Source: Candidatus Bathyarchaeota archaeon (GTDB taxonomy: Archaea; Thermoproteota; Bathyarchaeia; Bathyarchaeales; Bathycorpusculaceae). Taken from it: a DNA stretch of 64,000 nt. Numbering within the stretch: position 1 is the stretch's first letter; every line of letters begins with the position of its first letter. Shown here one piece after another: positions 2,421 through 17,964 of the stretch. Location: NCBI GenBank assembly GCA_963775685.1, contig CAVZJV010000014.1:768001-832000 (forward strand), in the 5' to 3' direction. The position numbers and the translations under genes were made by a program. The notes under the pieces are model-generated. The model saw nothing but the letters and a program-made list of their open reading frames with translations, did not search any database and was not told the DNA's origin.

Positions 2421-3626
2421 ATGGTTGATACAAACTCATTCGTGCTTCAATTATCTATTCTATTAGTGGCGGCCATTGCCGGCGGCTTACTGATAAAGAG
2501 GTTTGGTTACCCCGTCGCTTTAGGTGAGCTATTAGTCGGAGTTATTCTTGGACCTTCAGTATTTAACCTAATTTCAGACCAAGCGACAATAAGCGTATTT
2601 GCCGAACTGGGCGCAATTATTCTATTATTCTACATAGGTCTAGAAACAGAGATAGGCGACCTAAGAAAACAGCTGGTGCCTTCAATTTCCGTAGGAGTAC
2701 TGGGAGCATTAGTGCCGTTGGCGCTTTGCTACTATACTGCAATATCTTTGGGAATTTCTAATGATGAAGCACTTTTCCTCGGTGTTGTATTTACTGCAAC
2801 CAGCATTGGTATTACTATCCGATTGTTAAAAGACATGGGCAAATTGTGCAACCCAGTCGGGTTAACGGTTTTAGGTGCAGGCATCGTGGACGATGTTGTC
2901 GCTGTCATACTTTTATCCGTTGTCTTAAGCATATTATCTGGCGGGGTTAATACCTTTGATATAGGACTTGTTGTTGTAAAAGCCATAATATTTTGGGCCA
3001 TCACTATCTTAATAGGTTCAAAAGTTATAGTTCGCATTATCGATAAATTGCGAATCGACGACGAATACCTGATTCTATTAATACTTGCGTACGGCTTTTT
3101 TGCAGCTTATGTTGCCGCAGGCATAGGATTATCCGCAATCGTGGGAGCGTTTGCTGCAGGCTTACCCTTAACAAAAAGACAATGCAAAGTTAAGATGGTG
3201 CTTGAGCAAACCAAAAGTCTTTACATGTTCTTTGTTCCGATATTTTTCATATCAATAGGCACTCTGATTAATCTGAGCGTTTTTGGCCAAGCAGCATTTC
3301 TCGGACTCATAATAACGGCTGTAGCATTCTTGGGCAAGATAATAGGCAGCTTTGTAGCCGCTCGCATGAATAAATTCTCAACCAAAGATTCTCTCAAGAT
3401 AGGAGTTAGCATGACGCCAAGAGGTGAAATGGGCCTCATAATTGCAAGCATAGGATTAACAAGCGGACTAATTTCCACTAACACCTATTCCATTGCAGTA
3501 ATAGCTGTTATCTTAACTACTTTTATTGCGATGCCAATACTCAAGAAGCTTTTGAGCGACAAAAGAGATTCACCTACTGAAGAAAAAAACTCTGAGGGTC
3601 AACAGCAAATTGTCTGCCCTGAATAG
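2421..3626 (+). CDS. CPA2-family cation:proton antiporter (NapA/KefB-like)
   Basis: GELLVGVILGP, LLFYIGLE, TATSIGIT, AGIVDDV, PRGEMG motifs. Confidence 0.92.
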   Translation: MVDTNSFVLQLSILLVAAIAGGLLIKRFGYPVALGELLVGVILGPSVFNLISDQATISVFAELGAIILLFYIGLETEIGDLRKQLVPSISVGVLGALVPLALCYYTAISLGISNDEALFLGVVFTATSIGITIRLLKDMGKLCNPVGLTVLGAGIVDDVVAVILLSVVLSILSGGVNTFDIGLVVVKAIIFWAITILIGSKVIVRIIDKLRIDDEYLILLILAYGFFAAYVAAGIGLSAIVGAFAAGLPLTKRQCKVKMVLEQTKSLYMFFVPIFFISIGTLINLSVFGQAAFLGLIITAVAFLGKIIGSFVAARMNKFSTKDSLKIGVSMTPRGEMGLIIASIGLTSGLISTNTYSIAVIAVILTTFIAMPILKKLLSDKRDSPTEEKNSEGQQQIVCPE

Positions 3627-3826
3627 TCCCGTCATCAAATAGATCGTAGATTCCGCAAAGCTTTAGTCTTTTTTGAACTCAATTGTCCTTTATGCTTATC
3701 TGATTCCCTTTAACCTTTGCTTCCCTGTTTTTAGCTGATAAATAATGTGTGGATAATTTTTATATAGGGAGCAAAAAAGCTACTATGATCGGTAATTTAC
3801 GCATAAAGCAGCTTGAGGTAAGCTAA

Positions 3827-5203
3827 ATGATAGAAATTAAGAATCGAGAAAAATTGATTGAAAACGGACAAACATCCCACATTCGAAAATGTCGAACAGT
3901 AGCTCTTGAGTGCATTGAGCAGGCCTTTAACGCTGCCGATCCAGTACAATTGATGAAGAAAAAAATTAGTTTGCAAAAAAACAATTTCCAGGTTGAAGAC
4001 TGCAAGTTTGATCTGGAAAAGTTCAAGCATATTTATGTGATAGGCGGGGGCAAAGCAGGCGGTAAAATGGCACAAGCAATCGAGGAGGTTTTAGGCGAAC
4101 ATGTGACTGCTGGAATAGTAAACATTCCTTACGGCACGAAACAAAAAACGCATGTCATAGAGCTTAATGAAGCAAGCCACCCTATTCCAAACCAAGCAGG
4201 AGTGGACGGAACTTTTCGCATTCTTGCCTTAGCTGAGCAAGCTGGAGAGAATGATTTAGTGATTTGTTTGATTTCAGGTGGGGGATCAAGCCTAATGACT
4301 CTTCCTCGAGAAGACATTTCACTTGAGGAGCAACAATTAATAACAAATATGCTCCTCAAAAGCGGAGCCGCAATAACCGAAGTCAATATGGTCCGAAAAC
4401 ACCTTTCAATCTTCAAAGGCGGATGGCTTGCCAAAAAAGCTTACCCTGCAACAGTTCTAAACCTTGTGTTGTCAGATGTTATGGGAGATCCATTGGATTC
4501 TATAGCCTCTGGTCCAACAGTTCCAGACTCCTCGACCTTCATAGATGCAAAAAAAATCCTTCAAAGATATAAATTATGGTTGAATGCCCCAGCGTCTATT
4601 CAAAAAATCCTTTTGAGAGGCTCCGAAGGTTTCCTTCCGGAAACACCTAAAGCAGATGATTTAGCTTTTAAAAAGGTTTACAATGTCATTATTGGAAACA
4701 ACCGAACAGTTAGTCAGGTTGCCGTTGACTTCTTGCGTTCTGAAGGACTTAACACTTTGCTATTGCCTAATTTGCTAGAGGGAGAAGCCAAGGAAATGGG
4801 CAAAGTATTGGCAAAATTTGTAGGCGCAATTTTTGTATGTAATAATTCCATTCTCAAACCTCTTGGCGTAGTCGCTGGCGGCGAGACAACCGTAACTGTG
4901 AATGGAAAGGGACTTGGAGGAAGAAATCAAGAAACGGCGTTGTCTGCTGCTTTATCACTCAAAGAACAAGAGGAATGTGTAATTGCTTCTGTCAGTACAG
5001 ATGGAGTGGACGGTCCAACCGATGCCGCAGGAGCAATCATAGACAACTACACGCTCAAACGAGCAATACAGCTAGGAATGACCCCCGAAAAATACCTCGA
5101 GGATAATAATTCTTACAATTTCTTCTTAAAGCTTGATGACCTTATCCATACAGAAGCAACCGGAACCAACGTTAACGACATATCTATTATTGTACGATTA
5201 TAA
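3827..5203 (+). CDS. Glycerate 2-kinase, MOFRL/TtuD family
   Basis: GGGKA, SHPIP, LISGGGSSL, GGETTV, GGRNQE, TDGVDG, TGTNVND motifs. Confidence 0.93.
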   Translation: MIEIKNREKLIENGQTSHIRKCRTVALECIEQAFNAADPVQLMKKKISLQKNNFQVEDCKFDLEKFKHIYVIGGGKAGGKMAQAIEEVLGEHVTAGIVNIPYGTKQKTHVIELNEASHPIPNQAGVDGTFRILALAEQAGENDLVICLISGGGSSLMTLPREDISLEEQQLITNMLLKSGAAITEVNMVRKHLSIFKGGWLAKKAYPATVLNLVLSDVMGDPLDSIASGPTVPDSSTFIDAKKILQRYKLWLNAPASIQKILLRGSEGFLPETPKADDLAFKKVYNVIIGNNRTVSQVAVDFLRSEGLNTLLLPNLLEGEAKEMGKVLAKFVGAIFVCNNSILKPLGVVAGGETTVTVNGKGLGGRNQETALSAALSLKEQEECVIASVSTDGVDGPTDAAGAIIDNYTLKRAIQLGMTPEKYLEDNNSYNFFLKLDDLIHTEATGTNVNDISIIVRL

Positions 5204-5355
5204 AATAGTTGAAGCCAAAGGGTCGTACAAAAAAACTCAGGGCAAATTACTTACTCTTAAAGATAGTATACACACAATTATAACGATCCTTCCATAACTT
5301 TTGAGCGAATGATTTTTTAGAAATGAGCACATAACTTGCGGAGGGGAAAAAAGAA

Positions 5356-6588
5356 TTGAATAAGAATGACTCCGCATTATCATTAGATGCCCACGTGTAT
5401 CTGCATGACATAGAAAAAGCAGATATCTTAGTGGGAATTCCATCTTTCAATAATATTCTCACTGCAAGCTACGTTATCTCTCAAGTAACCAAGGGTTTGG
5501 ACACTTATTTCCCAAATATGCGGTCGGTAATCTTTGTCTCTGATGGAAACTCAAAGGACGACACCTTGAATTCGGTAAAGAAGATTTACTTGCCCTCCGA
5601 AGTAAAGCTAATTCCGGCGATTTACATGGGTATTGCAGGTAAAGGACGGGCCGTCAGGGCTATCTTTGAGGCGGCTAGCCATCTGAAGGTGAGAAGTGTA
5701 GCGTTAGTCGATTCAGATTTACGTAGCATAACTCCTGAATGGATGCGACTATTGATTAACCCAACTTTGGCTGGAACTGGTTTTGTGGCACCATACTACA
5801 ACCGCCGCAAATACGACGGAACAATAACAAACTTCTTGTGTTATCCAGTTACAACAAGCCTTTTCGGCAAGGACATAAGGCAGCCTATAGGAGGCGACTT
5901 TGGGCTTTCTATTGAACTAGTAGAGGATCTCTTAGATTCTTCCATGTGGGAACTCCCTGATGTTAGCCGATTTGGAATTGACATCTTTGAAACCTACACT
6001 GCGCTTGCAAAGGGCTACAAGATAAAGCAAGCCCTACTTGGAGTAAAAAGCCACGATGCAAAGGACCCCTCCAGTCAACTTGCTTCTATGTTCCATCAAG
6101 TGATGAACATTATGTTCGCTTGTATAGAGCAGAATGAGTCGATTTGGAAAGAAATAGTGGGTGTTTCAAAGACAGAAATGGTTGGCGAGGCTAAATACAC
6201 TGAAACGCCCGAGACTATTCAGGTTTCTTTGCCCGCAACCGTAGACGCATTCAAGAATAATTGCGACCAATACAAGGCACTCTATAAATCAATTCTAGAA
6301 CCCGAAATCCAGAGCAAGTTTGAACAATTAAAACAGATAGCAACATCGAACGTAGATTTTCCCTCAGAGATCTGGGCAAAAACTGTCTATTCCTTCATAG
6401 CTGAATTCCACAAAACTCCTGCAATCAGGGATAAACTAATAGATGCCTTGCGTGTCCTTTGGATTGGTCGAGTGGCCGTTTTTCTGAAAGAAACGTGGAA
6501 AGAATCAAGAGAAGATGCAGAACTACGAATCGTTGAAGAGGTAAAAGTTTTCGAAAAATTCAAACACTACTTGATTGAAAAGTATTGA
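5356..6588 (+). CDS. GT-A glycosyltransferase, glucosylglycerate synthase (Ggs)-like
   Basis: VGIPSFNN, SDGNSKD, GKGRA, VDSDLRSI, YDGTITN, RQPIGGDFG, FGIDI motifs; adjacent to glycerate kinase. Confidence 0.75.
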   Translation: MNKNDSALSLDAHVYLHDIEKADILVGIPSFNNILTASYVISQVTKGLDTYFPNMRSVIFVSDGNSKDDTLNSVKKIYLPSEVKLIPAIYMGIAGKGRAVRAIFEAASHLKVRSVALVDSDLRSITPEWMRLLINPTLAGTGFVAPYYNRRKYDGTITNFLCYPVTTSLFGKDIRQPIGGDFGLSIELVEDLLDSSMWELPDVSRFGIDIFETYTALAKGYKIKQALLGVKSHDAKDPSSQLASMFHQVMNIMFACIEQNESIWKEIVGVSKTEMVGEAKYTETPETIQVSLPATVDAFKNNCDQYKALYKSILEPEIQSKFEQLKQIATSNVDFPSEIWAKTVYSFIAEFHKTPAIRDKLIDALRVLWIGRVAVFLKETWKESREDAELRIVEEVKVFEKFKHYLIEKY

Positions 6589-6906
6589 TATTTCCTTTTT
6601 GTGGCTGTGTCAGATGATCTACGACCAGAAGAAAATCAGTTCTTTTTTAGTCAATTAGACGAAGAAATATTGTTTTTGCGCAAATTTGCTGGGCTTGTTT
6701 TGGGTTGCTTTCTTTGTTTGGGCTTTGAAAAACTTGCAGGGTGCGTCTTTAAAAGTCTTAAAAAGTCTGGAAAAGGCGGCTTTTCTAATTGTCTTGAATA
6801 AAATAATATATACGGATTAACGCATCTTTACCGCTCCCCCCGCGTGGGTTTTTCAAGCATCTTCGAAGGTGTCTCCTATAGAAGGATTGTTGCTTTGCTT
6901 ATTGGG

Positions 6907-7990
6907 TCACGACGTGTTGGGTAAATAATGCTGTCGTGAAGCTACATGAAAGGGCGACAGTATCTCTATGTGCGATTTCTTAAATTCGCTAAGAATGTTA
7001 TCGATTAGATCGCTTTTTATGGTTATAATAGCGTTTGGTCTGTTAGTGTAAGCGTTGATTTCATAGGTTATTGCATAGTTACCTAGGTCTTTTAGCAGAA
7101 CAAATGGCTTTTTGTCCGTAGTTGTTACGATTCCGCTTGTTTTTTCTGCGCTTTCGATCAGGAGCGTTTTAGCTTGATCCTTGTCAACATCGTAACCGAG
7201 GGTTATTGAAACATAGATTAGCACTTCTCGTAGGGCACTAAAATTCTTCATCTCTTTGTTCATCACAGTTAAGTTTGGAATGCTTATTATTTCATCTTTT
7301 ATCGTTTTGATTCTTGTGTAAAATACGCCTACTTCAACTATGTCTCCGTAGCTTTCACCGATTTGTACCCTATCACCTGTCTTGAATTCGTTTGTTCCTT
7401 CTAGAACCGTATAAGCTAACACGTTACCAAGAACGCTCGATGTGAACAAACCTAAGATGAATGTTAAAGCAACAATCATCCCTGTTCCTAAGAAACCCAG
7501 CGATCCATGTGCCTATAAACGAGTAAGCCCAAATTAATACAAGAGCAGCTATTACAGTAAAGTAGGTAATGTAAGTTAAGTATCTTGTTGTTGACCTAAC
7601 GGTTTTAATTCTAGATGAAGGATCCCTAACAACTTTTCCGACAACAGGAGATATAGTTACTATTGCTGCTGGTATGATGATTTTTTTGGAAGCTGCCAAT
7701 AAAAACCAGACTAAAAATGAAAGTAATACCTTTTGCAAAACACTGTAAACCATTGATTGCACATTTGCATTACCTACAAAATACAGTAGTCCCGATCTGT
7801 AACTACTTTCTAGAACCGTAAAAAGGAAAATAAAGATTGAAACTCTTAAAGATAACCAAAACAGATATTTTCCTGCTATTGAACCTCTTGTTTCATTCGT
7901 CCTTTTCTGCAAATAGCCTAAACTCCAGGTACAAAATATCTTGTTTCTTGATATATAAAATCTTTTCAAATACCGGTTTCGGCGTTTCAT
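6907..7990 (-). pseudogene. mscS: Small-conductance mechanosensitive channel split by one frameshift near 7490-7500 (possibly a sequencing error)
   Basis: TM N-terminal ORF 7424-7990 and C-terminal ORF 6907-7479 (FKTGDRVQIG, YTRIKT, IPNL, NFS); removing one G from GGG restores ...GFLGTGMIVAL. Confidence 0.8.
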
Positions 7991-8074
7991 CTGTATTCGA
8001 AAAATCCAGGATACGTCAAATCAAAAATGAAAAAACTTGGGTCTTCTGCTAACATTTTTTTGGCTTTCTATCGT

Positions 8075-8833
8075 TTAAGTTAGAGCAATCGACTCGATTT
8101 TTTTCCAAATAGCTTCCCTGTTTTCAGAACTATCAACGAAAAAGGATTTATCCACGATTTTTAACATCGCTAAGTCGTTTGGGCTATCCCCAATACCAAT
8201 GCTGACAATTCTATTATACTGGGTTAAGTACAAATTTATTAGAATTGATGTTGCCTTTCCTTTGTCGCAAGTTCCTAAAGCATGTAAATATCTTCCACCC
8301 ATGGTACAGCAAAGTCCTTCTTTTCTAACTGCATTCAAAAACTCTTCCACATTGCCTTCTAATATTTTGAAGGGCTCACTGTACTCCCTCTTTTTAGCAA
8401 GTTGCGCCAAATGCAGAGGTAAGCCGCTATCTCTTGAAATCTCTTCGGCGGACATGTCTCCAAACCCAACAATAAGGACTCCTGTTTGATTTTTCGAAGC
8501 TGCTAATTTTTCACGTATAGTTCGATAAGGAGTACCAAGTTCAATTATCTTATATCCAAATTTCTGTCGGGTAAATTCATAACTTGACTTAAAGTAATCT
8601 TCAGGTATAACAATGGCAGACCCATTTTCACTTATGAAAGGATCGCTTACTTGCCATTTTTTTCGGTAAAAATCTATTTCACTTCTTGTTTTACTGCTAG
8701 CGAAGACTATAGCGACATCTAAAGATAGGAGCTTACGAATAATTGGCTCTATTTCACCGCATTCATATTTGTCATTTAGGAGACTCCCGTCAAGGTCGGC
8801 AAAGACAACAAGTTTTGCTTCTTTAGCGTTCAA
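8075..8833 (-). CDS. gpgP: HAD-IIB glucosyl/mannosyl-3-phosphoglycerate phosphatase
   Basis: DLDGSLL, SSKTRSE, ENGSAI, REYSEPF, GGRY, GDSPNDLAML; overlaps the upstream synthase gene. Confidence 0.85.
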   Translation of the reverse strand: MNAKEAKLVVFADLDGSLLNDKYECGEIEPIIRKLLSLDVAIVFASSKTRSEIDFYRKKWQVSDPFISENGSAIVIPEDYFKSSYEFTRQKFGYKIIELGTPYRTIREKLAASKNQTGVLIVGFGDMSAEEISRDSGLPLHLAQLAKKREYSEPFKILEGNVEEFLNAVRKEGLCCTMGGRYLHALGTCDKGKATSILINLYLTQYNRIVSIGIGDSPNDLAMLKIVDKSFFVDSSENREAIWKKIESIALT

Positions 8834-10007
8834 TAGCGTTGTCTCTTAGTTTCTCTCTAATATTGGGCATTGCAGCCATAGTTCGTAGCCAATCAGGTAA
8901 TTGGGCTCTTATAGGATTTTCCAAATACTTTCGTCCACCCGAGAGTATAACTGAGCACAAATCATCAACATTGGCTTCTTCTTCATGTCGATCAAAATCG
9001 AGTCTATTACAGGTAGCATCAGCATGATATTGCCGTATTTTATCTTGCGCTAGCCGCCTATAAGCTACTTGAAGACTAGTTAGAAAGGGTGCGGAAACAT
9101 CTATGTTTTCGGTTTCAGTTAATGTCCTCAACAAGGTTACAAAACTATCCTCTGCTGTTTTTAGAAGCCCGCTATTATCAATCTGTTTATGTCTGTGTTC
9201 GTAGAATCCTAGGTCTATTTGGCATATGCGTCCGTAAGAGGCGTTTCTGTAAACCTCAGATAATAAGCCAAGTTCAAGCCCCCAGTCACTTGGCACTCTA
9301 AGATGTGTAGCTAAATCGCAGTAAAGGGCAATTTCGCCAGCTAGTGGATAACTAAACGACTGCAAATATGTTAGGAACCTTGAATAACGGAGTTTTTCCT
9401 GCAAAACTTCTAGCAACGGGTTGATAAATAACCTGTGAATACGCCCATACAACTTCTTGTTATCCTGATTTATCCGCGCGTAATATCCTTTAGAGAAGAA
9501 AAAATCAAGCTTAGGTTCAATAAGAGGATACAGCATTTTGGTTGGTAACATTTTATTGTAGGACATTATGTCAGCATCGTGAACTGCAAAAGCAAAAAGT
9601 TCCAGAGATGCAATACCCATTGCCATCCAAACGTCTTTGCCTTTTCCATATAGCTCTGTTACATCCAGACCTTTCCGCTTAAGTTCCTCTAAAACAACAA
9701 GCACTTCAGGCTTATTACACCAAATTACTTCACATGGAACTTTGAAGGATCGACTAATTCTCAAAGCTTCCTCATAATCCCCTGGGTCTTTGACTGAAAG
9801 AGCAATGAAAACCTTTTTCAGATATTGACACTGATTAATTTCACTGACAATTTTTCTTAGTCCGGGACTCTGAATGTCCTTTCCGATAATGGGTATTATA
9901 AGGCCTGAAGAGAACTTGGCTTTGTAGCTTTCAAGCTGGTTGGACATTGAGTCAAAATCTAAATAGAAATCATGTATGTTTGCTATTTTTCTTTGGTCAA
10001 TGTTCAT
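8823..10007 (-). CDS. gpgS: Glucosyl-3-phosphoglycerate synthase
   Basis: GKGKDVW, HDADI, KGYYAR, YPLAGE, DWGLELG, YEHRHK motifs; coupled to a HAD phosphatase. Confidence 0.85.
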   Translation of the reverse strand: MNIDQRKIANIHDFYLDFDSMSNQLESYKAKFSSGLIIPIIGKDIQSPGLRKIVSEINQCQYLKKVFIALSVKDPGDYEEALRISRSFKVPCEVIWCNKPEVLVVLEELKRKGLDVTELYGKGKDVWMAMGIASLELFAFAVHDADIMSYNKMLPTKMLYPLIEPKLDFFFSKGYYARINQDNKKLYGRIHRLFINPLLEVLQEKLRYSRFLTYLQSFSYPLAGEIALYCDLATHLRVPSDWGLELGLLSEVYRNASYGRICQIDLGFYEHRHKQIDNSGLLKTAEDSFVTLLRTLTETENIDVSAPFLTSLQVAYRRLAQDKIRQYHADATCNRLDFDRHEEEANVDDLCSVILSGGRKYLENPIRAQLPDWLRTMAAMPNIREKLRDNAIER

Positions 10008-10429
10008 AACAATCGCCCATTTCTATTACATATTAGTCTATTTTTGTTTTTTGACCTTTCAAAGGAGAGCTCATGACTCTTATTGAACCTTTTTGTTCCC
10101 CCAACCTAGTGAAGATAAGAATAGAGTAATCTTGGTTATCCTCTTTAATTTCAAAGAGAGAAATGGTTTAGGTCTAAAATAAGTCCACCCCCTTATTAAT
10201 TTATAAGGAATTCGAATAGTAGACGGTTGAAAAAATTTTAGGATTCGCTAAGAGGCATTTCTTAAAATCTATAATGTAGACTTCCAAAGAGAATTCAGTA
10301 ACCTTAATGCCAAAGCATCAATGGCGAGCTGGGAACTAAAGTAAGTTGACTTTCTAAGTCAGCGTAAAACTTTGTTCTTTCAAAGATAAATGCTCCGGTG
10401 AAGAACGTTTAAGAAATGTTCTTACAACT

Positions 10430-11689
10430 TTATGTCTTTTTAAGTCTGTACCTCAAAATAGCGGCAAATCCGCTCAATGCGGTTAGCTTTTCTTTCTCCT
10501 CCGATGCGGTAGATATCACCTCGACTCTCGCGTTGGACTGCGAAGCTAAATCCTCCAAGACATCCACTATATCTTTCTCATCAACTGTGTATTCTACTGC
10601 GCCACACCTCTCGCATGGGCGCGATATCATTTCGCGTATGGCTTGAATCTTGAGGTTTTTGTGTACTACTTTTGCCGCTGATAGCTCACACTTATTGCAT
10701 ATTACGACAATTTCGACGATGTCAGAATTATCCGTAACAAGTGCAACTTCTACTTCGCCTATCTTGAGTGCGTTTAAAACAGGATCTAAGCCATAAATAG
10801 CCAAGCTGTCTTGCTTGCCCACATATGTCAGAAGACGCTGTACAATCATCTTTTCTTCTGGGGCACACATATTCTTCAAAGTCTCAGATGATTTTTCAAG
10901 CACCTCCCGCACCCCTTCTCTGTCGGCGGATTGCGTGTCAATAGTGCTGACAAGTGCATTCTTTAATTCATAATGAAGATAATTACCGTTTAAGAAGTCG
11001 TCTTTTGTTAGACCCGGCCCACCAACAATCAAAACTGTGACTTTATGGTTCTCAAGAAACGCTTTCGCAGCATGCTCGGCAACTCTGTGGAAATAATTTG
11101 TAAGAGCCATGTCGCGTTCTCTTTCGTACCTTCTTTGGCTCGACCCGCCCTTTCCAGACTTTCCATGAATCCCTGAAGTGATATTTTCGATAATTTCAAG
11201 ATGTTCACCATTGAGGACTCCAAAGCTTGCCTCCTTTGAATCCATAGCAATAAGCCCAACAACTTTTTGGTTTCTCAGCATTTCTCTCAAAGGCTCTAGC
11301 CGGAAATGATTGTCAACTTCGTAGAGATATGTGATAATGGGTTCTGGTGGAACGAGCTCTTCAACATTCAAAATTTTGCTTTCCGAACCTTTGAAGGCGA
11401 AAGCCCCGGCAAATATTGCCAACCCATTCTCAGAAATTTGGGTCTGCAGCTTTAGTCGCTGGATTATATTCTTGAGTGCGTCTTGAAGATGATCTCTAAT
11501 ATTCCTTGCTTTCTCATATTTCGTGGATACTGATTCATATTCATTCTTAAGGTTTGCAACTATTTCGTCTGTAGATGAGCAACCAGGAATGTAAAGCGAG
11601 ATGAACTCCATATCCTTGTCCTCTTTTTCAGATAACCATGCTATGAGCTTCCTTAGTTTGTGCTGTTTCACTGAGTTTGTAGTTGCCAT
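10430..11689 (-). CDS. aRF1/eRF1-family paralog with altered motifs (GGSSQ, no NIKS)
   Basis: Three-domain aRF1 layout (ISLYIP, PPEPI, GGPG, YGLDPV, CxxC..CxxC minidomain, GFAAILRY); start set at ATG 11689 (MATTNS). Confidence 0.85.
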   Translation of the reverse strand: MATTNSVKQHKLRKLIAWLSEKEDKDMEFISLYIPGCSSTDEIVANLKNEYESVSTKYEKARNIRDHLQDALKNIIQRLKLQTQISENGLAIFAGAFAFKGSESKILNVEELVPPEPIITYLYEVDNHFRLEPLREMLRNQKVVGLIAMDSKEASFGVLNGEHLEIIENITSGIHGKSGKGGSSQRRYERERDMALTNYFHRVAEHAAKAFLENHKVTVLIVGGPGLTKDDFLNGNYLHYELKNALVSTIDTQSADREGVREVLEKSSETLKNMCAPEEKMIVQRLLTYVGKQDSLAIYGLDPVLNALKIGEVEVALVTDNSDIVEIVVICNKCELSAAKVVHKNLKIQAIREMISRPCERCGAVEYTVDEKDIVDVLEDLASQSNARVEVISTASEEKEKLTALSGFAAILRYRLKKT

Positions 11690-11761
11690 CTGGCATCCAT
11701 GAAAATGTGATATTTTTTCAGAAACCAAATCTAACACCTTAACGTTCAGTTACGGGGAATA

Positions 11762-12674
11762 CTAATTTATAGAGTTTCTCAATAGAGGTAATTGTTTCGC
11801 AAGATGAAATGTTTTGATTAAAAAGACAAAGATCATGTGCACAATGGGTCCAGCCGATTCTTCACCGGTACGTGGGAAGAGTTTTCTTGAGTAATCTTTG
11901 TGGGATTCGGTAACGCGGTTGTGTATTTGCTCTAGGTTTAACACTAAAAGTGTCATGTTGAATTTGTCTTGTCCACAATATTTCTTGAGGGCGCTCGTTT
12001 TCCAGTGTTTCTGACAGGAGGTAATAGAAGAATTTGTCAAAAGCAGCTGCAACCGGCGTGTGGGTTGTGAAGACACATACGTTTTTTACTTTATTCTCGT
12101 CTAAATTGTTTCTCTTCAAGAGTCAAGAGTAAGTAGACTTGAATGTCCTTCGTTTCATGTGGTATTTCTTGACATTAATGTTTAATGCTTCAAGAATGCG
12201 TAATCCGCCTAACCCAAAACTATCTCCTGCATTAAACAGCATTTTTTGCCGTCGCCATAGAGCAAATCAATAATTTGCCTGTCCTCTTGAGTGTTACCTT
12301 CAACATCTTTAGTAAGGAACAGAACCGGTATGGTTCCGCCAATAAGACTCTCCTGTTCATAAACCCAAACACCAACCTTAACATGCCGTCCCGAAATCTT
12401 CAAAGTTGAAGTCACGGTCAATAGCTTCACAAACTTTGAGGGACTCCCTTCCTCAGCGAGTTCGATTTGTCAGCCGTCAAGAGTTAATTTTTGTTTCAAG
12501 TAACCTTTTTGGTGATTAAAATTACCGCGACCACAGGTAACCTCAAATCTGCACTTGACCTGATTATATCGCCTGCCATAACCACCAGTCCTCCACTGTA
12601 ACTATGGATATCTGGCGACTACCGATTTCCATAGAGAAATAAACAATTTTGGACCCTTCAACAAAACTGGTCAT
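11762..12674 (-). pseudogene. glgP: Alpha-glucan (glycogen) phosphorylase, N-terminal remnant with frameshifts and stops
   Basis: Fragments [55 protein letters not shown](A)FDKF in different frames. Confidence 0.85.
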
Positions 12675-13031
12675 ATAATATTCGCTGTCAAAATAGTATT
12701 ATCGCCCTAAAAATTCATATTTATGCTTTGTTTTCTGTGGATCTAAGGCATACCGCAAACTGGGTCCTTGGTAGACATGAAATCAGAACCCTCGTTTTTA
12801 AAGAATGTGACTTCGCCTGTAATTAGATTACTAGCTAAAATCTCTTAAGAATCAATACAACCGTTTGTAAAGATGGGTGCTTCAAAATAGTTTAATACTC
12901 CTCAAGCATAAATTATTTAGATACACGTCAAAGTCCCAATTTTGAGCGAGTTATTTTGGGGGCGGCGCTTTGACTAAGATGCTTAACTTGATTTAGTTAG
13001 GAGACAAACGCTTATAGGCGGTTTAGATATC

Positions 13032-13523
13032 ATGGTTGAAAAAAATACCGAGCAATTAGATTTGTCAGATGTTGTTGCTTGCGTTAAAGAACATTTGGAA
13101 AGAGCAGGATATAATGTTACAACCATTAATCATTACGGAATTGGCGTCAGTATAACTGGTATAAAAGATAAAGAAATCTTTATTGTTGAGGCAGTGGGGG
13201 AAAGTGAACAAGATTCTAACAACACAAGCGAAAAACAGATTCTATCTGCAATTGGTGAGGTAGTGCGAAGGATGAAACGCCGCGAAATGTGGACTTTTTA
13301 TGGAATAGCAATACCTAAGGGCTACTTGAAAATTTTGAAGGACTTTGAGGTGGGCGGGATTAAGTTATTGGATTTTCATTTTTTCATAGTCGAGACTTTA
13401 TGGTCTCTGTATCATCTTGATTTAAAAGCAACAGTTGAGCTAATCCAAAATCTTAAAGCAGGCAAACCTGAAGCGCTAATAGATTTAGATATTGATTTTA
13501 AGAATTTTGATTACATGATTTAG
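13032..13523 (+). CDS. Hypothetical protein, degenerate PD-(D/E)XK-like fold
   Basis: HLERAGYNV..GVSITGIK..FIVEAVG resembles a restriction-endonuclease-like core with catalytic D and K replaced. Confidence 0.5.
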   Translation: MVEKNTEQLDLSDVVACVKEHLERAGYNVTTINHYGIGVSITGIKDKEIFIVEAVGESEQDSNNTSEKQILSAIGEVVRRMKRREMWTFYGIAIPKGYLKILKDFEVGGIKLLDFHFFIVETLWSLYHLDLKATVELIQNLKAGKPEALIDLDIDFKNFDYMI

Positions 13524-13569: not shown

Positions 13570-16152
13570 GTGATCATCACCTTTAAAGATTTAGTTAAGG
13601 TGTTTTTTTTCTTGGCTTCTAAGAAAACAGAAACTCTTAGCAGAGATACCCCCTTTGAAATCTATGTTAAGATGGGTCTCTCTTCAGAAGAAGTTGCAAG
13701 AAAAATTGAAAAATATGGATTAAATGAATTCCCCGAAAAGAAAGTTAATTCCTTCCGAAAATTTTTGGGATATTTCTGGGGACCCATACCCTGGATGATT
13801 GAAATTGCTTCAATATTATCTGTAATCATACAGCACTATGACGATTTTGCTATTATTTTCACCTTGTTAATCGTGAATGCTGTTGTGGGGTTTTGGCAGG
13901 AACGCAAAGCAGACAACGCAATAGAACTGCTAAAGAAAAGACTATCTCCAAAAGCCCGGGTGTTGCGAGATGGCATCTGGCATGAGATACCGTCAAAGGA
14001 ACTTGTTCCGGGAGACATCGTACGTGTACGTTTAGGCGACATTGTTCCTGCCGATGTAAAACTTATGAAAGGCCCCTATTTGCTTGCCGATGAATCCGCA
14101 TTAACGGGTGAATCTTTACCTGTAGAAAAACACGTTTCTGACATAGCTTATGCAGGAGCCATCATTAGACAGGGCGAAATGGATGCTTATGTCGTGGCGA
14201 CTGGAATAAGCAGCTTTTTTGGCAAGACGGCCAAGTTAGTAGCTGAAGCTAGATCTGTAAGCCACTTTCAAAGAGCAGTTATAAGAATAGGCAACTACTT
14301 GATTATTCTTGCAGCAATCATGGTTTCTGCTGTTGTAATTGCTGCTCTCGCTCGACAGGCCAATCCTTTGGAAATTCTACAGTTCGCGTTAGTTTTGGTT
14401 GTAGCTTCGATACCTGTAGCGTTACCTGCTGTTTTGACTGTAACAATGGCAATTGGAGCAATTGCTCTTGCCAAAAAAGAAGCCATAGTCAGCAAATTAG
14501 TGGCGATTGAAGAAATGGCTGGTGTTGATGTACTATGTTCCGACAAAACAGGCACAATAACAAAAAATGAACTAACTATAGCGGAAGCGCAAGCCTTAGG
14601 AAAATTCGAAATCGACGACGCTCTTTTATATGGAACATTAGCTTCAAGGGTAGAAAATCATGATCCTATCGATGATGCAGTGATTTCAAAAGCCAAGTCA
14701 ATCCATGTTGTTGCTGATGTTCTTGGTCGATACAATGTAGTTGATTTTAAGCCTTTTGATCCGGTTTCTAAGATGACGGAAGCCACCGTGGAGAATCGAG
14801 ACGGCGGAAGTTTCAGAGTTGCAAAGGGTGCGCCACAGGTGGTTTTGTCGCTTGTTTCAAACAGAGCAGAAATTGAAAATAGAGTTGACGAAATTGTAAA
14901 CACCTATGCACGAAAAGGTCACCGGTCATTGGGTATAATTAAGGAAGATGAAAAGGGCAATTGGGAGTACGTTGGTCTTCTTGCAATTTATGATCCGCCA
15001 AGAGAAGACTCTGCAGAAACGATAAAAACAGCTCAAAAAATGGGTTTGCAGGTTAAAATGGTCACAGGCGACCACATTGCTATTGCTAAACAGATTGCTC
15101 AAGAAGTTAATCTAGGCACAAATATAGTGTCAGCGTCTTCTTTTGTAGATAAACCTGACAGTGAATCAAAGCGAATAATTGAAGCCGCTGATGGTTTTGC
15201 ACAAGTTTTTCCTGAACACAAATACCGCATTGTCGAGTTGCTTCAAGATAAAGGACATATTGTTGGCATGACTGGAGACGGCGTGAATGACGCACCTGCA
15301 TTAAAGAAAGCAAATGCCGGCGTGGCAGTTGCCGGAGCTACCGACGCTGCAAAATCAGCAGCAGATGTGGTGTTAACAAAACCAGGACTTTCTGTTATCA
15401 TTGATGCAATAAAGGAAAGTCGCAAGATTTTTGAACGCATGACCAACTATGCTGTTTACCGAATTGCCGAAACAACTAGAGTGTTAATTTTCTTGTCTTT
15501 TTCAATTCTTGCCTTCAACTTCTATCCATTGACGGCTGTCATGATAGTGATCTTAGCCTTGCTTAACGATATGCCCATAATGACAATTGCTTATGATAAA
15601 GTTAGGGTGCAAGAGAAGCCCGTCCGTTGGAACATGCGTGGAGTATTGATTGTGGCGTCTCTTCTTGGAGCCACAGGCGTTGTTTCAAGCTTTGGGCTCT
15701 TTTTAATTGGATTAAACGTGTTCCACTTGAGTTTAAGCAGTCTTCAAACGTTGATTTTCTTGAAGATGGCTGTCGCTGGGCATCTGACTATTTATCTTGC
15801 GCGCACTGGAGTGAACCATTTCTGGAAACGCCCACTTCCAGCATACATTCTTTTCTTAACTACAGAGGTGACTCAAGTTATTGGGACGCTGTTCGCTGTT
15901 TACGGTGTGTTTATGACTCCGATTGGTTGGGGATTCGCTGCCTTCGTTTGGGGATATGCGTTACTCAGCTTCTTAATTACCGACCAGCTAAAGATTCACT
16001 TCTTCAGATTGATGAGGCACGAAGAAGCGCAATCCAGCAGACAAAACTATAGCGGGTCTTCCGCTTTTCCTCGTATCCGACAGCTCTTATCTAAAATAAT
16101 TCAGCCTAAAATAGGAAGAGTCAAAATTTTATCCTCTAAAAAAGAAAAATAA
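13570..16152 (+). CDS. Plasma-membrane proton-efflux P-type ATPase (P3A)
   Basis: FWGPIPWMIE, DESALTGES, SIPVALPAV, CSDKTGT, KGAPQ, MTGDGVNDAP, LLNDMPIMTIAYD; true start may be TTG 13612. Confidence 0.95.
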   Translation: MIITFKDLVKVFFFLASKKTETLSRDTPFEIYVKMGLSSEEVARKIEKYGLNEFPEKKVNSFRKFLGYFWGPIPWMIEIASILSVIIQHYDDFAIIFTLLIVNAVVGFWQERKADNAIELLKKRLSPKARVLRDGIWHEIPSKELVPGDIVRVRLGDIVPADVKLMKGPYLLADESALTGESLPVEKHVSDIAYAGAIIRQGEMDAYVVATGISSFFGKTAKLVAEARSVSHFQRAVIRIGNYLIILAAIMVSAVVIAALARQANPLEILQFALVLVVASIPVALPAVLTVTMAIGAIALAKKEAIVSKLVAIEEMAGVDVLCSDKTGTITKNELTIAEAQALGKFEIDDALLYGTLASRVENHDPIDDAVISKAKSIHVVADVLGRYNVVDFKPFDPVSKMTEATVENRDGGSFRVAKGAPQVVLSLVSNRAEIENRVDEIVNTYARKGHRSLGIIKEDEKGNWEYVGLLAIYDPPREDSAETIKTAQKMGLQVKMVTGDHIAIAKQIAQEVNLGTNIVSASSFVDKPDSESKRIIEAADGFAQVFPEHKYRIVELLQDKGHIVGMTGDGVNDAPALKKANAGVAVAGATDAAKSAADVVLTKPGLSVIIDAIKESRKIFERMTNYAVYRIAETTRVLIFLSFSILAFNFYPLTAVMIVILALLNDMPIMTIAYDKVRVQEKPVRWNMRGVLIVASLLGATGVVSSFGLFLIGLNVFHLSLSSLQTLIFLKMAVAGHLTIYLARTGVNHFWKRPLPAYILFLTTEVTQVIGTLFAVYGVFMTPIGWGFAAFVWGYALLSFLITDQLKIHFFRLMRHEEAQSSRQNYSGSSAFPRIRQLLSKIIQPKIGRVKILSSKKEK

Positions 16153-16176
16153 GAATTCAATTTTGGTCAGGACTTG

Positions 16177-17964
16177 TCATACGCTTCCTGAGAGTTTAAT
16201 CTCTTCAAGTTTTGACATTATCTCAATGTTATAGACCCGCCAGATATCTTCCCGAGTAATTATACCTATCAGTTTAGTGTCATCCTTTTGGTCAACAACA
16301 GGCAGACGCCCAACCTGGTTATTTGTCATCTTGCCAAAGGCGACATAAAGATTTTCATCTAAAATCGTTGTGACCAAGTCTTTGGTCATTACGGTGTTCA
16401 CTTTCGTGATTGTTCTTTTGTCTGGATGAAGTTTGAGAACATCAGTAAGAGTTATCATACCCTCGAGTCTGCCTTGATTATCTGAGACAGGTACCCCTTT
16501 TATTCCATTCCTTGATAACATATCGGCAACCTCTGAAACCGGTGAGTTGGGGGAAATCGTGAGGACTTTTTTGGTCATTGCATCTTTGACCAAAAGCCGT
16601 TGCATCATAGAAATCGAGTATTCACTTCTGTGAGCAGGAGACTCAACTCTTGATGGAACTTGGCTTTTATAAATTGTATTCTTTCCTGTAACTACGTACG
16701 CAATTACGGTTGCTATCATTGAAGGAACCAGTAAAGTGAGGCCGCCTGTCATTTCGCTAACCATAAGTATGACTGCAACAGGCACTTTGCCTACGCCTCC
16801 AAAAAACGCCATCATCCCAACTATTGTGAATGCAGCAATGACTGGACTGAAGTTTGGAAAAATGAAATTTAACAGTAACCAGAGTGCTACGCCAAGAAAG
16901 CCGCCTACGAATAGAGCGGGTGCAAAAACGCCTCCGCTTCCTCCTGAACCTACCGTTAGGGATGTTGCGACTATTTTGGCTGCAATTATGACTGGAACGA
17001 GAATGACTGGGAGTAAAATAAAGTTGCTGCTCATGGCCATCTGGAGCCAACCATATCCCATGCCGAGCACTTGCGGCAGAAACATTCCGATGATGCCTAC
17101 TAGTAGTCCGCCTAGGGCAGGCTTTAGGAATCGGGGCATTTTAAGACTTTGAAAGAAAGCCTTTGTACCGTAGAATCCCTTGACGTAAATTATGCCTACT
17201 AAACCGCAAAGTATGCCTAGAACAGCATAGAAGGGTAGGTCAAGTGGGTCGCTGAACGCAGCTTGGTTCATGTAGCCGAATATGGGCGTCCATCCCGTAA
17301 ACGATGCAAATATACTGTAGCCTACAGTCGAAGCAATAAAAGCGGGCAACAATGTTTCTACTTCGAAATCGCCCATGTAAAGAATTTCTGCGGCCAATAT
17401 TGCACCGCCAAATGGCGCTTTGAAAATGGCGCCTATGCCTGAACCTATGCCGACTGCGACTGCTATTCTTCTGTCTTTTAAGCTGAGGTGGAGTTTTTTG
17501 CCTAAAAAAGAGCCGAATCCGGCGCCTATCTGTGCTGTAGGGCCTTCTCTGCCGGCGCTTCCTCCGGAGCCTATTGTAATAGCTGAAGCTATCAGCTTTA
17601 CTATGGGGATTCTGGATCGGATTTCGCCTTTTTTGTTGTGGAATGCGTCGATAGCTGCGTCGGTTCCGTGACCTTCAGCTTCAGGTGCTAAGCCATAGAC
17701 GATAAGACCGCTTAGAAGCCCCCCAATGGTTGTAATTACTGGTATTAGGTAGATGTGGGATGAGAGTATTCCTAAGCTTCCGCCTTCTCCTGCTGGTGAT
17801 GGAGGAAAAAAACCTCCGAAGTCACCGAGCAGATAGGTGCTAGAAAGGCTGATAGCTTCGTAGAAAAGCAGACTCCCCACGCCGCTTATTGTCCCTATCA
17901 AAATGGCAATGGGAACCCATTTTCTTAAATAACTTAGCTCGCGAGAAGCTGTGGGAGATTTCAA
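16177..17964 (-). CDS. ClC chloride channel / Cl-/H+ antiporter with CBS pair
   Basis: GHGTD, GSAGREGP (gating Glu), GGSGGVFAP; two C-terminal CBS domains. Confidence 0.95.
   Translation of the reverse strand: MKSPTASRELSYLRKWVPIAILIGTISGVGSLLFYEAISLSSTYLLGDFGGFFPPSPAGEGGSLGILSSHIYLIPVITTIGGLLSGLIVYGLAPEAEGHGTDAAIDAFHNKKGEIRSRIPIVKLIASAITIGSGGSAGREGPTAQIGAGFGSFLGKKLHLSLKDRRIAVAVGIGSGIGAIFKAPFGGAILAAEILYMGDFEVETLLPAFIASTVGYSIFASFTGWTPIFGYMNQAAFSDPLDLPFYAVLGILCGLVGIIYVKGFYGTKAFFQSLKMPRFLKPALGGLLVGIIGMFLPQVLGMGYGWLQMAMSSNFILLPVILVPVIIAAKIVATSLTVGSGGSGGVFAPALFVGGFLGVALWLLLNFIFPNFSPVIAAFTIVGMMAFFGGVGKVPVAVILMVSEMTGGLTLLVPSMIATVIAYVVTGKNTIYKSQVPSRVESPAHRSEYSISMMQRLLVKDAMTKKVLTISPNSPVSEVADMLSRNGIKGVPVSDNQGRLEGMITLTDVLKLHPDKRTITKVNTVMTKDLVTTILDENLYVAFGKMTNNQVGRLPVVDQKDDTKLIGIITREDIWRVYNIEIMSKLEEIKLSGSV

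Follow-up and report, generated by a model that had tools for sequence, protein, structure and literature searches.

Archaea are thought to use one omnipotent release factor, aRF1, for termination and Pelota for the rescue of stalled ribosomes, and Pelota cannot cut the nascent chain from the tRNA. To our knowledge, archaea have no established dedicated hydrolase of the full three-domain aRF1 type that works independently of codons. Mutating the glutamine of the GGQ motif reportedly reduces release only moderately, the glycines being essential, and only one of the two aRF1 copies of Methanosarcina barkeri is said to be active in vitro. Excerpts of Burroughs and Aravind (2019, PMC6514570) describe aVLRF-1 and acVLRF-1 as predicted hydrolases that carry a GGxSQ motif: in aVLRF-1 the C-terminal Pelota-type domain is missing and a long coiled coil occupies the N terminus, acVLRF-1 is devoid of the codon-binding domain, and VLRF-1 loops are said to be longer than that of aRF1. 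In Pelota the N domain is Sm-like and a GGQ-type loop is lacking (same excerpts; PMC2613156), while an HP motif and a lasso loop are described for Balon in part of bioRxiv 10.1101/2022.11.24.517861. A passage of PMC3467058 has aEF1-alpha carrying both aRF1 and Pelota in archaea. Two aRF1 copies occur in 4.3% of archaeal genomes and copy number rises with genome size, according to excerpts of PMC12626013. Our literature searches returned no description of a Bathyarchaeia family of aRF1 paralogs, although the two-copy list of PMC12626013 may include carriers.

Here we analysed such a paralog in a 64,000-nucleotide stretch of a Candidatus Bathyarchaeota contig, hereafter the window. The open reading frame 10430..11689 of the minus strand translates into 419 amino acids with no internal stops. 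A previous inspection of the letters, the sequence-only reading, had taken it for a full-length aRF1 paralog, which stands, but had started it 13 codons too far downstream. In the ortholog alignment these 13 codons are kept as protein (MVSEKxxHFHGCQ), many orthologs have I, L or V for the Met of ATG 11689, and of the 39 loci with a placeable start 32 show an aligned TTG, 6 an ATG and 1 a GTG; we therefore set the coding sequence at 10430-11728 (minus strand, 432 aa, stop codon 10430-10432), the conserved TTG at 11728 being the evident start and ATG 11689 an internal codon. A stop codon sits just 5' of the aligned start in several loci, and GTG at 11737 is a less likely alternative. A candidate H-x-H-x-C metal site in the N-terminal segment was discarded, its second His being Q, Y, K or R in many orthologs. 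The reading frames of the window are ordinary under table 11.

The aRF1 model TIGR03676 (NCBIfam) matched residues 9-415 with 357.9 bits, above its cut-off of 234.7. Pfam eRF1_2 and eRF1_3 (65 bits for the latter) also matched the window copy, in which eRF1_1 did not reach E 0.01. An AlphaFold2 model (mean pLDDT 84.3) contains the aRF1 N domain and was aligned by Foldseek with aRF1 4AF1 over its full length (E 4e-37, 421 columns), so that the three-domain N-M-C architecture of classical aRF1/eRF1 is present. The CxxC...CxxC minidomain of domain C lies at 10604..10699 (minus strand) with C331, C334, C359 and C362; C331 and C359 are invariant, and C334 and C362 occur in at least 90%, of 55 aligned sequences. 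Three intact domains and an intact zinc minidomain had been claimed, and the profile match, the fold and the four cysteines bear this out. The Pelota model TIGR00111 covered only the M and C domains, at 79.7 bits against a cut-off of 177.65, and the genome has its own Pelota, which led us to reject identity with Pelota/Dom34; the Balon/Rv2629 model NF052289 gave a weak match of 34.6 bits against 320, and that identity was likewise rejected. Kinship with VLRF-1 could not be judged from Pfam, where acVLRF1 scored 43.7 bits on the paralog and 40.3 on the canonical aRF1 of the same genome; acVLRF1 and baeRF family 10 match canonical aRF1 equally well.

The window gene belongs to a family of Bathyarchaeia aRF1 paralogs, of which 145 members were aligned. 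In a tree that held no VLRF-1 sequences, the paralog grouped with the canonical aRF1s P0124, L117 and L118 at 100/99 support, and the nearest canonical relatives are the aRF1s of one other lineage, from MAGs labelled Nitrososphaeria. The family thus appears to be derived from classical aRF1, within which it branches. All named relatives come from Bathyarchaeia-type MAGs except for a few bins labelled Acidoferrum, Nanoarchaeia or Nitrososphaerales. The median pairwise dN/dS was 0.209 (533 pairs with dS of 0.05-1.2), with 0.237 for domain N, 0.165 for M and 0.227 for C: purifying selection acts on the entire protein, including its N domain. Across the 145 sequences 49 of 419 sites are invariant, 14 in N, 22 in M and 13 in C; these include all but one of the eight positions of the K180-R187 loop.

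The paralog is not the single, universal terminator of its cell. Its own genome (G000) encodes a canonical aRF1 at C14:1473727-1474974, 37% identical to the paralog and equipped with NIKS, YRCDSRF and GGQSARRY, as well as a Pelota at about C14:310 kb; the case in which this would be the only aRF1 in the genome, left standing by the sequence-only reading, is thereby excluded. A canonical-type aRF1 was also found in all 29 other paralog-bearing genomes searched. The 26 full-length copies among these carry NIKS, YxCxxxF and GGQ, and the other three are fragments.

The motifs with which aRF1 reads stop codons are altered. In an alignment with 55 canonical aRF1s, the equivalent of the TASNIKS loop spans residues 49-61 (11507..11545, minus strand); NIKS is absent, and the stretch reads ESVSTKYEKARN in the window copy. 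Over the 145 members no part of the protein varies more than this loop, which shows up to 44 changes and up to 13 residue types per position and 30-44 changes at each of its four most variable positions, and none of the orthologs examined keeps NIKS. At residues 123-129 (11303..11323, minus strand) the alignment places YEVDNHF where YxCxxxF is expected; the family consensus is Y-E/K-V-D-D/N-H-F, and the Cys is gone in 119 of the 120 closest relatives, one of which reads CEV. The family consensus and the window copy both have Met in place of the invariant Thr of the GTS-type loop. Both motif losses noted from the letters, of NIKS and of YxCxxxF, were thus confirmed. Because no ortholog keeps NIKS and the equivalent loop is hypervariable, stop-codon reading appears to have been lost across the whole family.

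The catalytic loop behaves differently from the NIKS-equivalent loop. Residues G181 G182 S183 S184 Q185 are encoded at 11135..11149 of the minus strand (ggc ggg tcg agc caa, codons 11149-11135) within GKSGKGGSSQRRYER, as had been noted. The loop length is unchanged, the canonical aRF1 of the genome reading GGQSARRY and the paralog GGSSQRRY, so GGSSQ is not an insertion. Residue 183 (x183) takes the place of the canonical Gln, and Q185 stands where canonical aRF1s have Ala or Gln. Among the 145 members, K180, G181, G182, S184, Q185, R186 and R187 underwent no change, while x183 changed at least 21 times by parsimony between six residue types (S 73, Q 49, E 14, M 4, W 3, A 2), Q being ancestral. 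The same GGSSQ is present in 59 of the 120 closest database relatives and is therefore neither chance nor decay; GGxSQ with an invariant +2 Gln is the family trait. The claim that GGQ is replaced holds for the window copy, which reads GGS, and x183 is not Q in 96 of the 145 members, but about a third of the orthologs read GGQSQ, so that loss of the canonical Gln does not define the family. Positive selection at x183 was considered and rejected: at rank 79 of 419 by parsimony changes, the site is relaxed, not exceptional. The family offers a natural experiment on the GGQ loop, in which the Gln was replaced at least 21 times while both glycines and the +2 Gln stayed fixed.

The distribution of the gene is patchy. 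Of the 151 genomes of the order sample 13 have it, as do 9 of the 301 of the class sample, and several MAGs carry two copies. The reading frame is intact in the window and at most loci; broken or split copies were seen at L069, L071, L074, L075 and L076, and in G091, which contains one TGA and one TAA. The paralogs were more similar than the canonical aRF1s in 137 of 377 genome pairs (95.4% against 47.5% in one example), and across genome pairs the two similarities gave a Spearman coefficient of -0.26. DNA homology was confined to the gene and short flanks in 914 of 946 locus pairs, between-genome similarity extending from about 150 nt upstream to about 40 nt past the stop codon; the window and L063 share 166 nt upstream and are 78% identical over 1424 nt. 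A neighbouring gene on the L055 contig tracks the host lineage: it is 95% identical in G161 and 66% in G160 and has no counterpart in G157 or G151, which excludes mis-binning for that locus. The family moves horizontally between soil archaea as a single gene with about 150 nt of upstream DNA. This conserved upstream region, recognised by DNA similarity between loci and travelling with the gene, occupies 11729..11890 (minus strand) and includes a TATA-like ATAAATTAG at 11762-11770 (minus strand), some 34 nt ahead of the TTG start; beyond this element, conservation continues over about 90 nt of non-coding DNA. A core translation factor here behaves as a mobile accessory gene with its own putative promoter. 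Rfam gave no match in 9900-13100 at E up to 1. Among the sequencing matches there was no RNA run; four soil DNA runs from a single study contain 5-7% of the words.

Clustering of 44 loci revealed no neighbouring gene conserved beyond sub-clades, the commonest non-overlapping neighbours being a P-type ATPase (10 loci) and a CBS/CLC protein (9 loci). The "stress-gene block" in which the gene had been placed is not conserved in these loci and is attributed to chance. We also rejected a functional link with the sub-clade neighbours, which by eye resemble a tRNA-splicing endonuclease, eIF-2B/MtnA and a phosphoribosyltransferase. No integrase, transposase, defence or viral gene recurred beside the paralog in the 44 loci, and inspection by eye identified no terminal repeats at the ends of the shared DNA. 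In an empty-site comparison with five same-genus GpgS loci, synteny ended right after GpgS in all five, so that neither an empty site nor an insertion boundary emerged.

The paralog is probably an accessory factor that acts on ribosomes without reading stop codons. We propose that it is a stop-codon-independent A-site factor that has kept the capacity for peptidyl-tRNA hydrolysis, and give this reading a probability of roughly 0.45. From the features above we infer ribosome binding, hydrolysis, a role for Q185, a carrier GTPase and a physiological trigger, which would combine as follows. Delivered by aEF1-alpha through its intact M and C domains, the paralog would occupy the A site as a tRNA mimic, aRF1-like but codon-blind, and its K-G-G-x-S-Q-R-R loop would reach the peptidyl-transferase centre and still trigger hydrolysis. 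The two glycines would supply the backbone geometry, and Q185, or the backbone alone, would do the work of the canonical Gln, in the way suggested for the VLRF-1 GGxSQ loop. Its likely job would be nascent-chain release on ribosomes that have stalled with no stop codon in the A site. The sequence-only reading, which had put forward a codon-independent rescue or quality-control factor, is borne out in part, and such a role is a candidate one. The gene would be dispensable and, with its TTG start, expressed at a low level; its gain and loss by horizontal transfer suggests a benefit only under particular stresses or conflicts. Several observations fit hydrolysis less well. Q185 falls in the first helical turn of the AlphaFold2 model, in which the helix after the loop begins at residue 183, unless the loop rearranges on the ribosome, and the loop is no longer than that of aRF1, unlike in VLRF-1. 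The second Gln need not be catalytic, since some canonical aRF1s also read GGQSQ. Pelota already rescues stalled archaeal ribosomes, which leaves the need for a second factor unexplained; only one M. barkeri copy of two is active in vitro, where it recognises stop codons (excerpts of PMC12626013); and the 44 loci share no conserved partner gene.

The same loss of stop-codon motifs would be expected of a protein that merely plugs the A site and the peptidyl-transferase centre of idle or stalled ribosomes, its loop only docking on rRNA, as a hibernation, silencing or splitting factor resembling Balon or Pelota. The canonical Gln is indeed dispensable, x183 being S, E, M, W or A in 96 of 145 members; Balon, an aeRF1 fold without NIKS and GGQ, hibernates ribosomes with EF-Tu (part of bioRxiv 10.1101/2022.11.24.517861), eRF1 itself has been observed on idle 80S ribosomes (title of 6ZME), and passages of PMC6514570 suggest non-catalytic A-site inhibitors for baeRF-1 families devoid of the Gln. 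The Balon chain 8v9j came at rank 20 of the Foldseek matches, with the weak NF052289 match lying far under its cut-off. Families presumed non-catalytic are, however, described in the same passages as having a poorly conserved loop of variable length, whereas here seven of eight positions are invariant and the length is fixed, and the invariant Q185 and G-G pair are exactly what a hydrolase loop requires. We regard such a plug as somewhat unlikely. Still less probable in our estimate is a relation to genetic conflict, in which the gene would counter or mimic viral or toxin attack on translation, for instance by freeing ribosomes stalled by tRNA- or mRNA-cleaving effectors, or would serve a mobile element; it would be compatible with either a hydrolase or a plug. 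The patchy presence, the double and broken copies, the discord between the gene tree and the canonical aRF1 tree, the homology restricted to gene and short flanks and the L055 neighbour that rules out mis-binning all suit such a gene, and Burroughs and Aravind tie several rescue-type release-factor paralogs to conflicts (excerpts of PMC6514570). Yet no mobile-element, defence or viral neighbour recurs, no terminal repeats were identified, the middling rank of x183 offers no sign of an arms race at that site, and accessory genes are simply more numerous in larger genomes.

That the N domain is maintained (dN/dS 0.237), with a conserved N-terminal helix and Y-E/K-V-D-D/N-H-F motif, could also mean that it was remodelled to read a particular codon or context, such as one stop codon, a sense codon or a recoding signal, giving the cell two terminators of different ranges; aRF1/eRF1 duplicates are discussed for organisms with recoded stops (excerpts of PMC12626013; PMC2613156). 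This is highly unlikely, however: the loop that should contact the codon is the least constrained part of the protein, the window frames are ordinary under table 11, the gene is missing from most close relatives, and no Pyl machinery was found in the 96.9%-complete genome G000 (PylS C-terminal domain 35.5 bits against a cut-off of 178, PylD no match). As for a decaying duplicate without function, the split or stop-carrying copies, which may be assembly errors, and the lost catalytic Gln of the window copy weigh little beside a dN/dS of 0.21, 49 invariant sites of 419 that include most of the catalytic loop, frames intact at most loci and a conserved promoter and start codon; we consider this scarcely credible.

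The codon-blind hydrolase that we favour may be extended further. The family might represent a hitherto undescribed, horizontally mobile archaeal peptidyl-tRNA hydrolase born from classical aRF1, whose catalytic Gln has shifted by two residues (GGxSQ) in convergence with Vms1, a counterpart of ArfB/Vms1 that spreads among soil Bathyarchaeia as a single-gene cassette, possibly against ribosome-stalling attacks; we consider this fuller picture possible but doubtful. The pattern at x183 bears on the debates about the role of the Gln and about whether GGxSQ loops, as in VLRF-1 proteins, are catalytic, and the question is directly testable, since the protein is small, looks soluble and can be assayed easily.

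Compared with known systems, the paralog shares the M and C domain folds with Pelota/Dom34 and Balon, which act without stop-codon reading, and probably also has in common with them an EF1-alpha/EF-Tu carrier. Like Methanosarcina aRF1-2, to which we liken it by description only, it supplements a functional aRF1 as an additional gene of the aRF1 family; it differs in that its nearest canonical relatives are Nitrososphaeria-labelled and its genome has no Pyl system. A GGxSQ-like loop had been named as a feature of VLRF1-type factors, and excerpts of PMC6514570 state it for aVLRF-1 and acVLRF-1. The paralog resembles these in that loop and in being a standalone gene, and both it and they (in the same excerpts) are predicted to be specialised release factors outside normal termination. 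Unlike aVLRF-1, it has all three aRF1 domains, no coiled coil, an extension of only 13 aa and a loop of aRF1 length. Identity with Vms1/VLRF1-type factors, whose loop the sequence-only reading had brought in for comparison, is not upheld, given the C domain, the missing coiled coil and the branching within classical aRF1 in our tree without VLRF-1 sequences; by its architecture the paralog does not qualify as an aVLRF-1. Together with the aRF1-length loop and the uninformative acVLRF1 score, these features argue that its GGxSQ motif is convergent with that of VLRF-1. With canonical aRF1 (TIGR03676; 4AF1, 3AGK/3VMF) it shares the three-domain fold and the length, the G-G pair, S184, the RRYER helix start, the CxxC...CxxC minidomain and the C-terminal GGFAAxLRY. 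It departs from canonical aRF1 in lacking NIKS, the Cys of YxCxxxF and the Thr of the GTS-type loop, in the variable Gln of GGQ, and in its fixed +2 Gln, 13-aa N-terminal extension and TTG start; it is accessory and horizontally mobile, whereas canonical aRF1 is universal.

The open reading frame at 10430-11689 (minus strand) translates cleanly into 419 aa, and its codons 11149-11135, within GKSGKGGSSQRRYER, encode the G-G-S-S-Q loop that the sequence-only reading had described. The same reading had noted the loss of NIKS and a divergent YxCxxxF motif, and the translated ORF agrees on both points: NIKS is missing and residues 123-129 (numbered from the ATG at 11689) read YEVDNHF. In the alignment GGSSQRRY of the paralog and GGQSARRY of canonical aRF1 correspond one-to-one; a longer catalytic loop was ruled out, the two stretches being equal in length. 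The start proposed at ATG 11689 had to be moved. Of 45 paralog loci, 6 fall outside the pattern; at the 39 that allow the start to be assigned, the aligned start codon is TTG in 32, ATG in 6 and GTG in 1, and it lies 13 codons upstream; a stop stands just ahead of it in several loci. Because the frame 5' of the ATG is kept as protein across orthologs (MVSEKxxHFHGCQ), because many of them have Ile, Leu or Val in place of the Met, and because the aligned start is mostly TTG, the coding sequence is taken to be 10430-11728.

All three domains are present, as had been claimed. The NCBIfam aRF1 model aligns with the paralog along its whole length (357.9 bits; the cut-off is 234.7), and an AlphaFold2 model (55-row alignment, mean pLDDT 84.3) compared with solved structures matched archaeal aRF1 4AF1 across all three domains, followed by eRF1 structures, then Balon and Pelota; 4AF1 is also the nearest solved chain by sequence (E = 1.4e-55). 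Pfam matched eRF1 domains 2 and 3. The Pfam eRF1 N-domain model did not reach E 0.01 on the window copy, and it scored 49.2 bits on an ortholog and 75.1 bits on canonical aRF1. The paralog is shaped like aRF1, and its M and C domains are intact; in aRF1 these two domains bear the hydrolase loop and make the contacts with GTPase and ribosome.

At E<1e-20 we found 1796 database relatives, of which the best 120 are 70-82% identical and all of the window-paralog type. Conservation of GGSSQ, which the sequence-only reading had left to be checked, was observed in 59 of these best 120 of 1796; the others carry GGQSQ (43), GGESQ (11), GGWSQ (3), GGMSQ (2) and GGASQ (1), and one was unmatched. Among 145 distinct family sequences, loci and database proteins pooled, K180, G181, G182, S184, Q185, R186 and R187 never change. 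Residue 183 is S in 73, Q in 49, E in 14, M in 4, W in 3 and A in 2, with at least 21 changes (rank 79 of 419 sites) on a tree built without the loop columns. GGQSQ is the ancestral loop and its first Gln has been lost repeatedly, since Gln occupies position 183 on all deep branches and in the canonical outgroups. In the same 145 sequences the TASNIKS-equivalent stretch varies more than any other part of the protein (up to 44 changes and up to 13 residue types per site), Y-E/K-V-D-D/N-H-F is fairly constant across the family with its Cys gone, and the GTS-type loop has Met in place of the invariant Thr. Pairwise dN/dS over 533 pairs had a median of 0.209 (N 0.237, M 0.165, C 0.227), a value computed from paralog pairs alone that says nothing relative to aRF1. 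Selection maintains the protein; the decoding loop varies freely and the peptidyl-transferase-centre loop stays fixed save for the classical Gln.

The 3.06-Mb assembly (96.9% complete) also encodes Pelota and the canonical GGQ/NIKS aRF1 that had been sought elsewhere in the genome (NIKS, YRCDSRF, GGQSARRY; 37% identical to the paralog), so that the paralog is not its only aRF1. A profile search returned just these three superfamily members, and canonical-type aRF1 was present in all 29 further carrier genomes searched. PylS and PylD were looked for in the window genome and not found, hence no pyrrolysine link there. The records of 43 genomic loci of the family are labelled as Bathyarchaeia-type MAGs of soil and peat. 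An even sample of the order gave a paralog-type gene in 13 of 151 genomes (8 of the window's family, 1 and 4 of two other families; 2 of the 13 copies interrupted), and a class sample in 9 of 301, all of the window's family. Within the genus, larger genomes tend to be the carriers. In several MAGs the gene is present twice, and split copies also occur; these may be genuine pseudogenes or artefacts of assembly. Two loci on separate contigs of one MAG (L034 and L063) are 98.7% identical over ~10 kb with identical paralogs; either a segment was duplicated recently or assembly or binning produced a duplicate.

The window also holds an osmoadaptation/ion-type cluster (2421-10007 and 13570-17964) comprising a Na+/H+ exchanger, a glycerate kinase-type protein (DUF4147/MOFRL), a mannosylglycerate-synthase-like glycosyltransferase, an MscS apparently split into two ORFs (6907-7479 and 7424-7990), a HAD phosphatase, a glucosyl-3-phosphoglycerate synthase (NF040724, 517.5 bits, below the cut-off of 700), a P-type ATPase and a CLC channel with CBS domains, which suggests a glucosylglycerate or compatible-solute locus. 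None of these genes is a conserved partner across 44 paralog loci, so the location in a "stress-gene block" is due to chance. Two short minus-strand ORFs within 11862-12430 align with separate, non-adjoining segments of the alpha-glucan phosphorylase model TIGR02094 (12209-12430, profile 87-148, 29.9 bits; 11862-12119, profile 195-228, 23.4 bits). They represent a degraded phosphorylase gene directly upstream of the paralog, the rest of which would fall at the paralog's present position, and suggest local rearrangement; five same-genus loci provided no empty site for comparison. A 163-aa protein (13032-13523, plus strand) has no Pfam or NCBIfam match; its homolog adjoins the paralog in one other genome (neighbour family F134, locus L063) and at no other loci.

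In 914 of 946 locus pairs, DNA similarity extends no further than the gene with ~150 nt upstream and ~40 nt downstream. The upstream part contains a TATA-like box ~34 nt before the start and ~90 nt of conserved non-coding sequence. As similarity stops at these short flanks, the paralog travels as a single-gene unit carrying its own promoter; on inspection by eye, neither an integrase nor a transposase recurs around the loci, and terminal repeats were not clearly visible. How alike two paralogs are is not predicted by how alike their hosts are: paralog identity exceeds canonical aRF1 identity in 137 of 377 genome pairs (for example 95.4% vs 47.5%), and the two similarities have a rank correlation of -0.26. 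The canonical aRF1s of two independent MAGs are 97.8% identical, and both MAGs carry the paralog, at differing sites. On one of their contigs a neighbour gene tracks the host: its counterpart in the sister MAG is 95% identical and that of another genome 66%, and two genomes with paralogs 91-95% identical gave no match. Since both sister MAGs carry the paralog and this neighbour follows the host lineage, binning error does not look like the cause of the discordance. The protein of this neighbour gene (363 aa, L055:14078-15166) belongs to an expanded family: G154, G161 and G160 each contain 5 to 15 paralogous matches to it, and in G160 several of them cluster on one contig. In a carefully built maximum-likelihood tree (LG+C20, 45 rows) the paralogs are monophyletic (support 100/100) on a long stem (0.79), outside the aRF1s of their hosts' order, and group (100/99) with P0124, L117 and L118, canonical aRF1s of a lineage whose MAGs are labelled Nitrososphaeria. 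The latter carry YRCDDHF, which resembles the paralog YEVDDHF. Long-branch attraction could conceivably contribute to this placement.

Release needs the GGQ glycines; the Gln side chain serves chiefly to select water. The most economical reading, to which we give a probability of about 0.45, is a release factor that would act without codon reading, its loop retaining catalytic capacity and the Gln requirement having moved to Q185 or to the backbone; it is based on the intact fold and M and C domains, the degenerate decoding loop and the rigid G-G-x-S-Q-R-R. PMC6514570 presents aVLRF-1 and acVLRF-1 as predicted hydrolases with GGxSQ. The main rival, a factor similar to Balon that would plug the A site or hibernate ribosomes without catalysis, is possible but clearly less probable: presumed inactive relatives have poorly conserved loops, according to the same paper, whereas the loop of the paralog is well conserved. 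A conflict-related role, which fits the mobility of the gene and is compatible with either release or a plug, is less likely still. Changed codon specificity fits poorly and is improbable, and decay, a poor fit too, is the least credible of all.

A literature search, outside which lay SI Table S9 of PMC12626013 and Alkalaeva 2009, yielded no description of the Bathyarchaeia family, of its GGxSQ pattern or of the gene's mobility. Many other aRF1 homologs of 500-1450 aa (P0121-P0123, P0126 and P0128 among them) match in two stretches with a break near residue 183, at the GGQ loop, and look like intein-bearing genes with an insertion at the catalytic loop. P0161, whose source label is bacterial and which reads GGESARRFER, and P0228 also have the length of aRF1 and lack both NIKS and YxCxxxF; aRF1 paralogs with degenerate motifs may have evolved repeatedly. 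The window's release-factor paralog is real, unusual and under selection. By fold and phylogeny it is a derived member of classical aRF1, but it lacks four features that define that group: NIKS, YxCxxxF, GGQ and universality. The suggested link to VLRF1-type factors holds for the GGxSQ motif, shared with aVLRF-1, and fails for architecture and clade, which differ; the motif is therefore convergent, and the acVLRF1 Pfam match of the paralog is no better than that of canonical aRF1. PMC12626013 reports two aRF1 copies in 4.3% of archaeal genomes and an increase of copy number with genome size, and Methanosarcina likewise has an extra aRF1 copy, aRF1-2.
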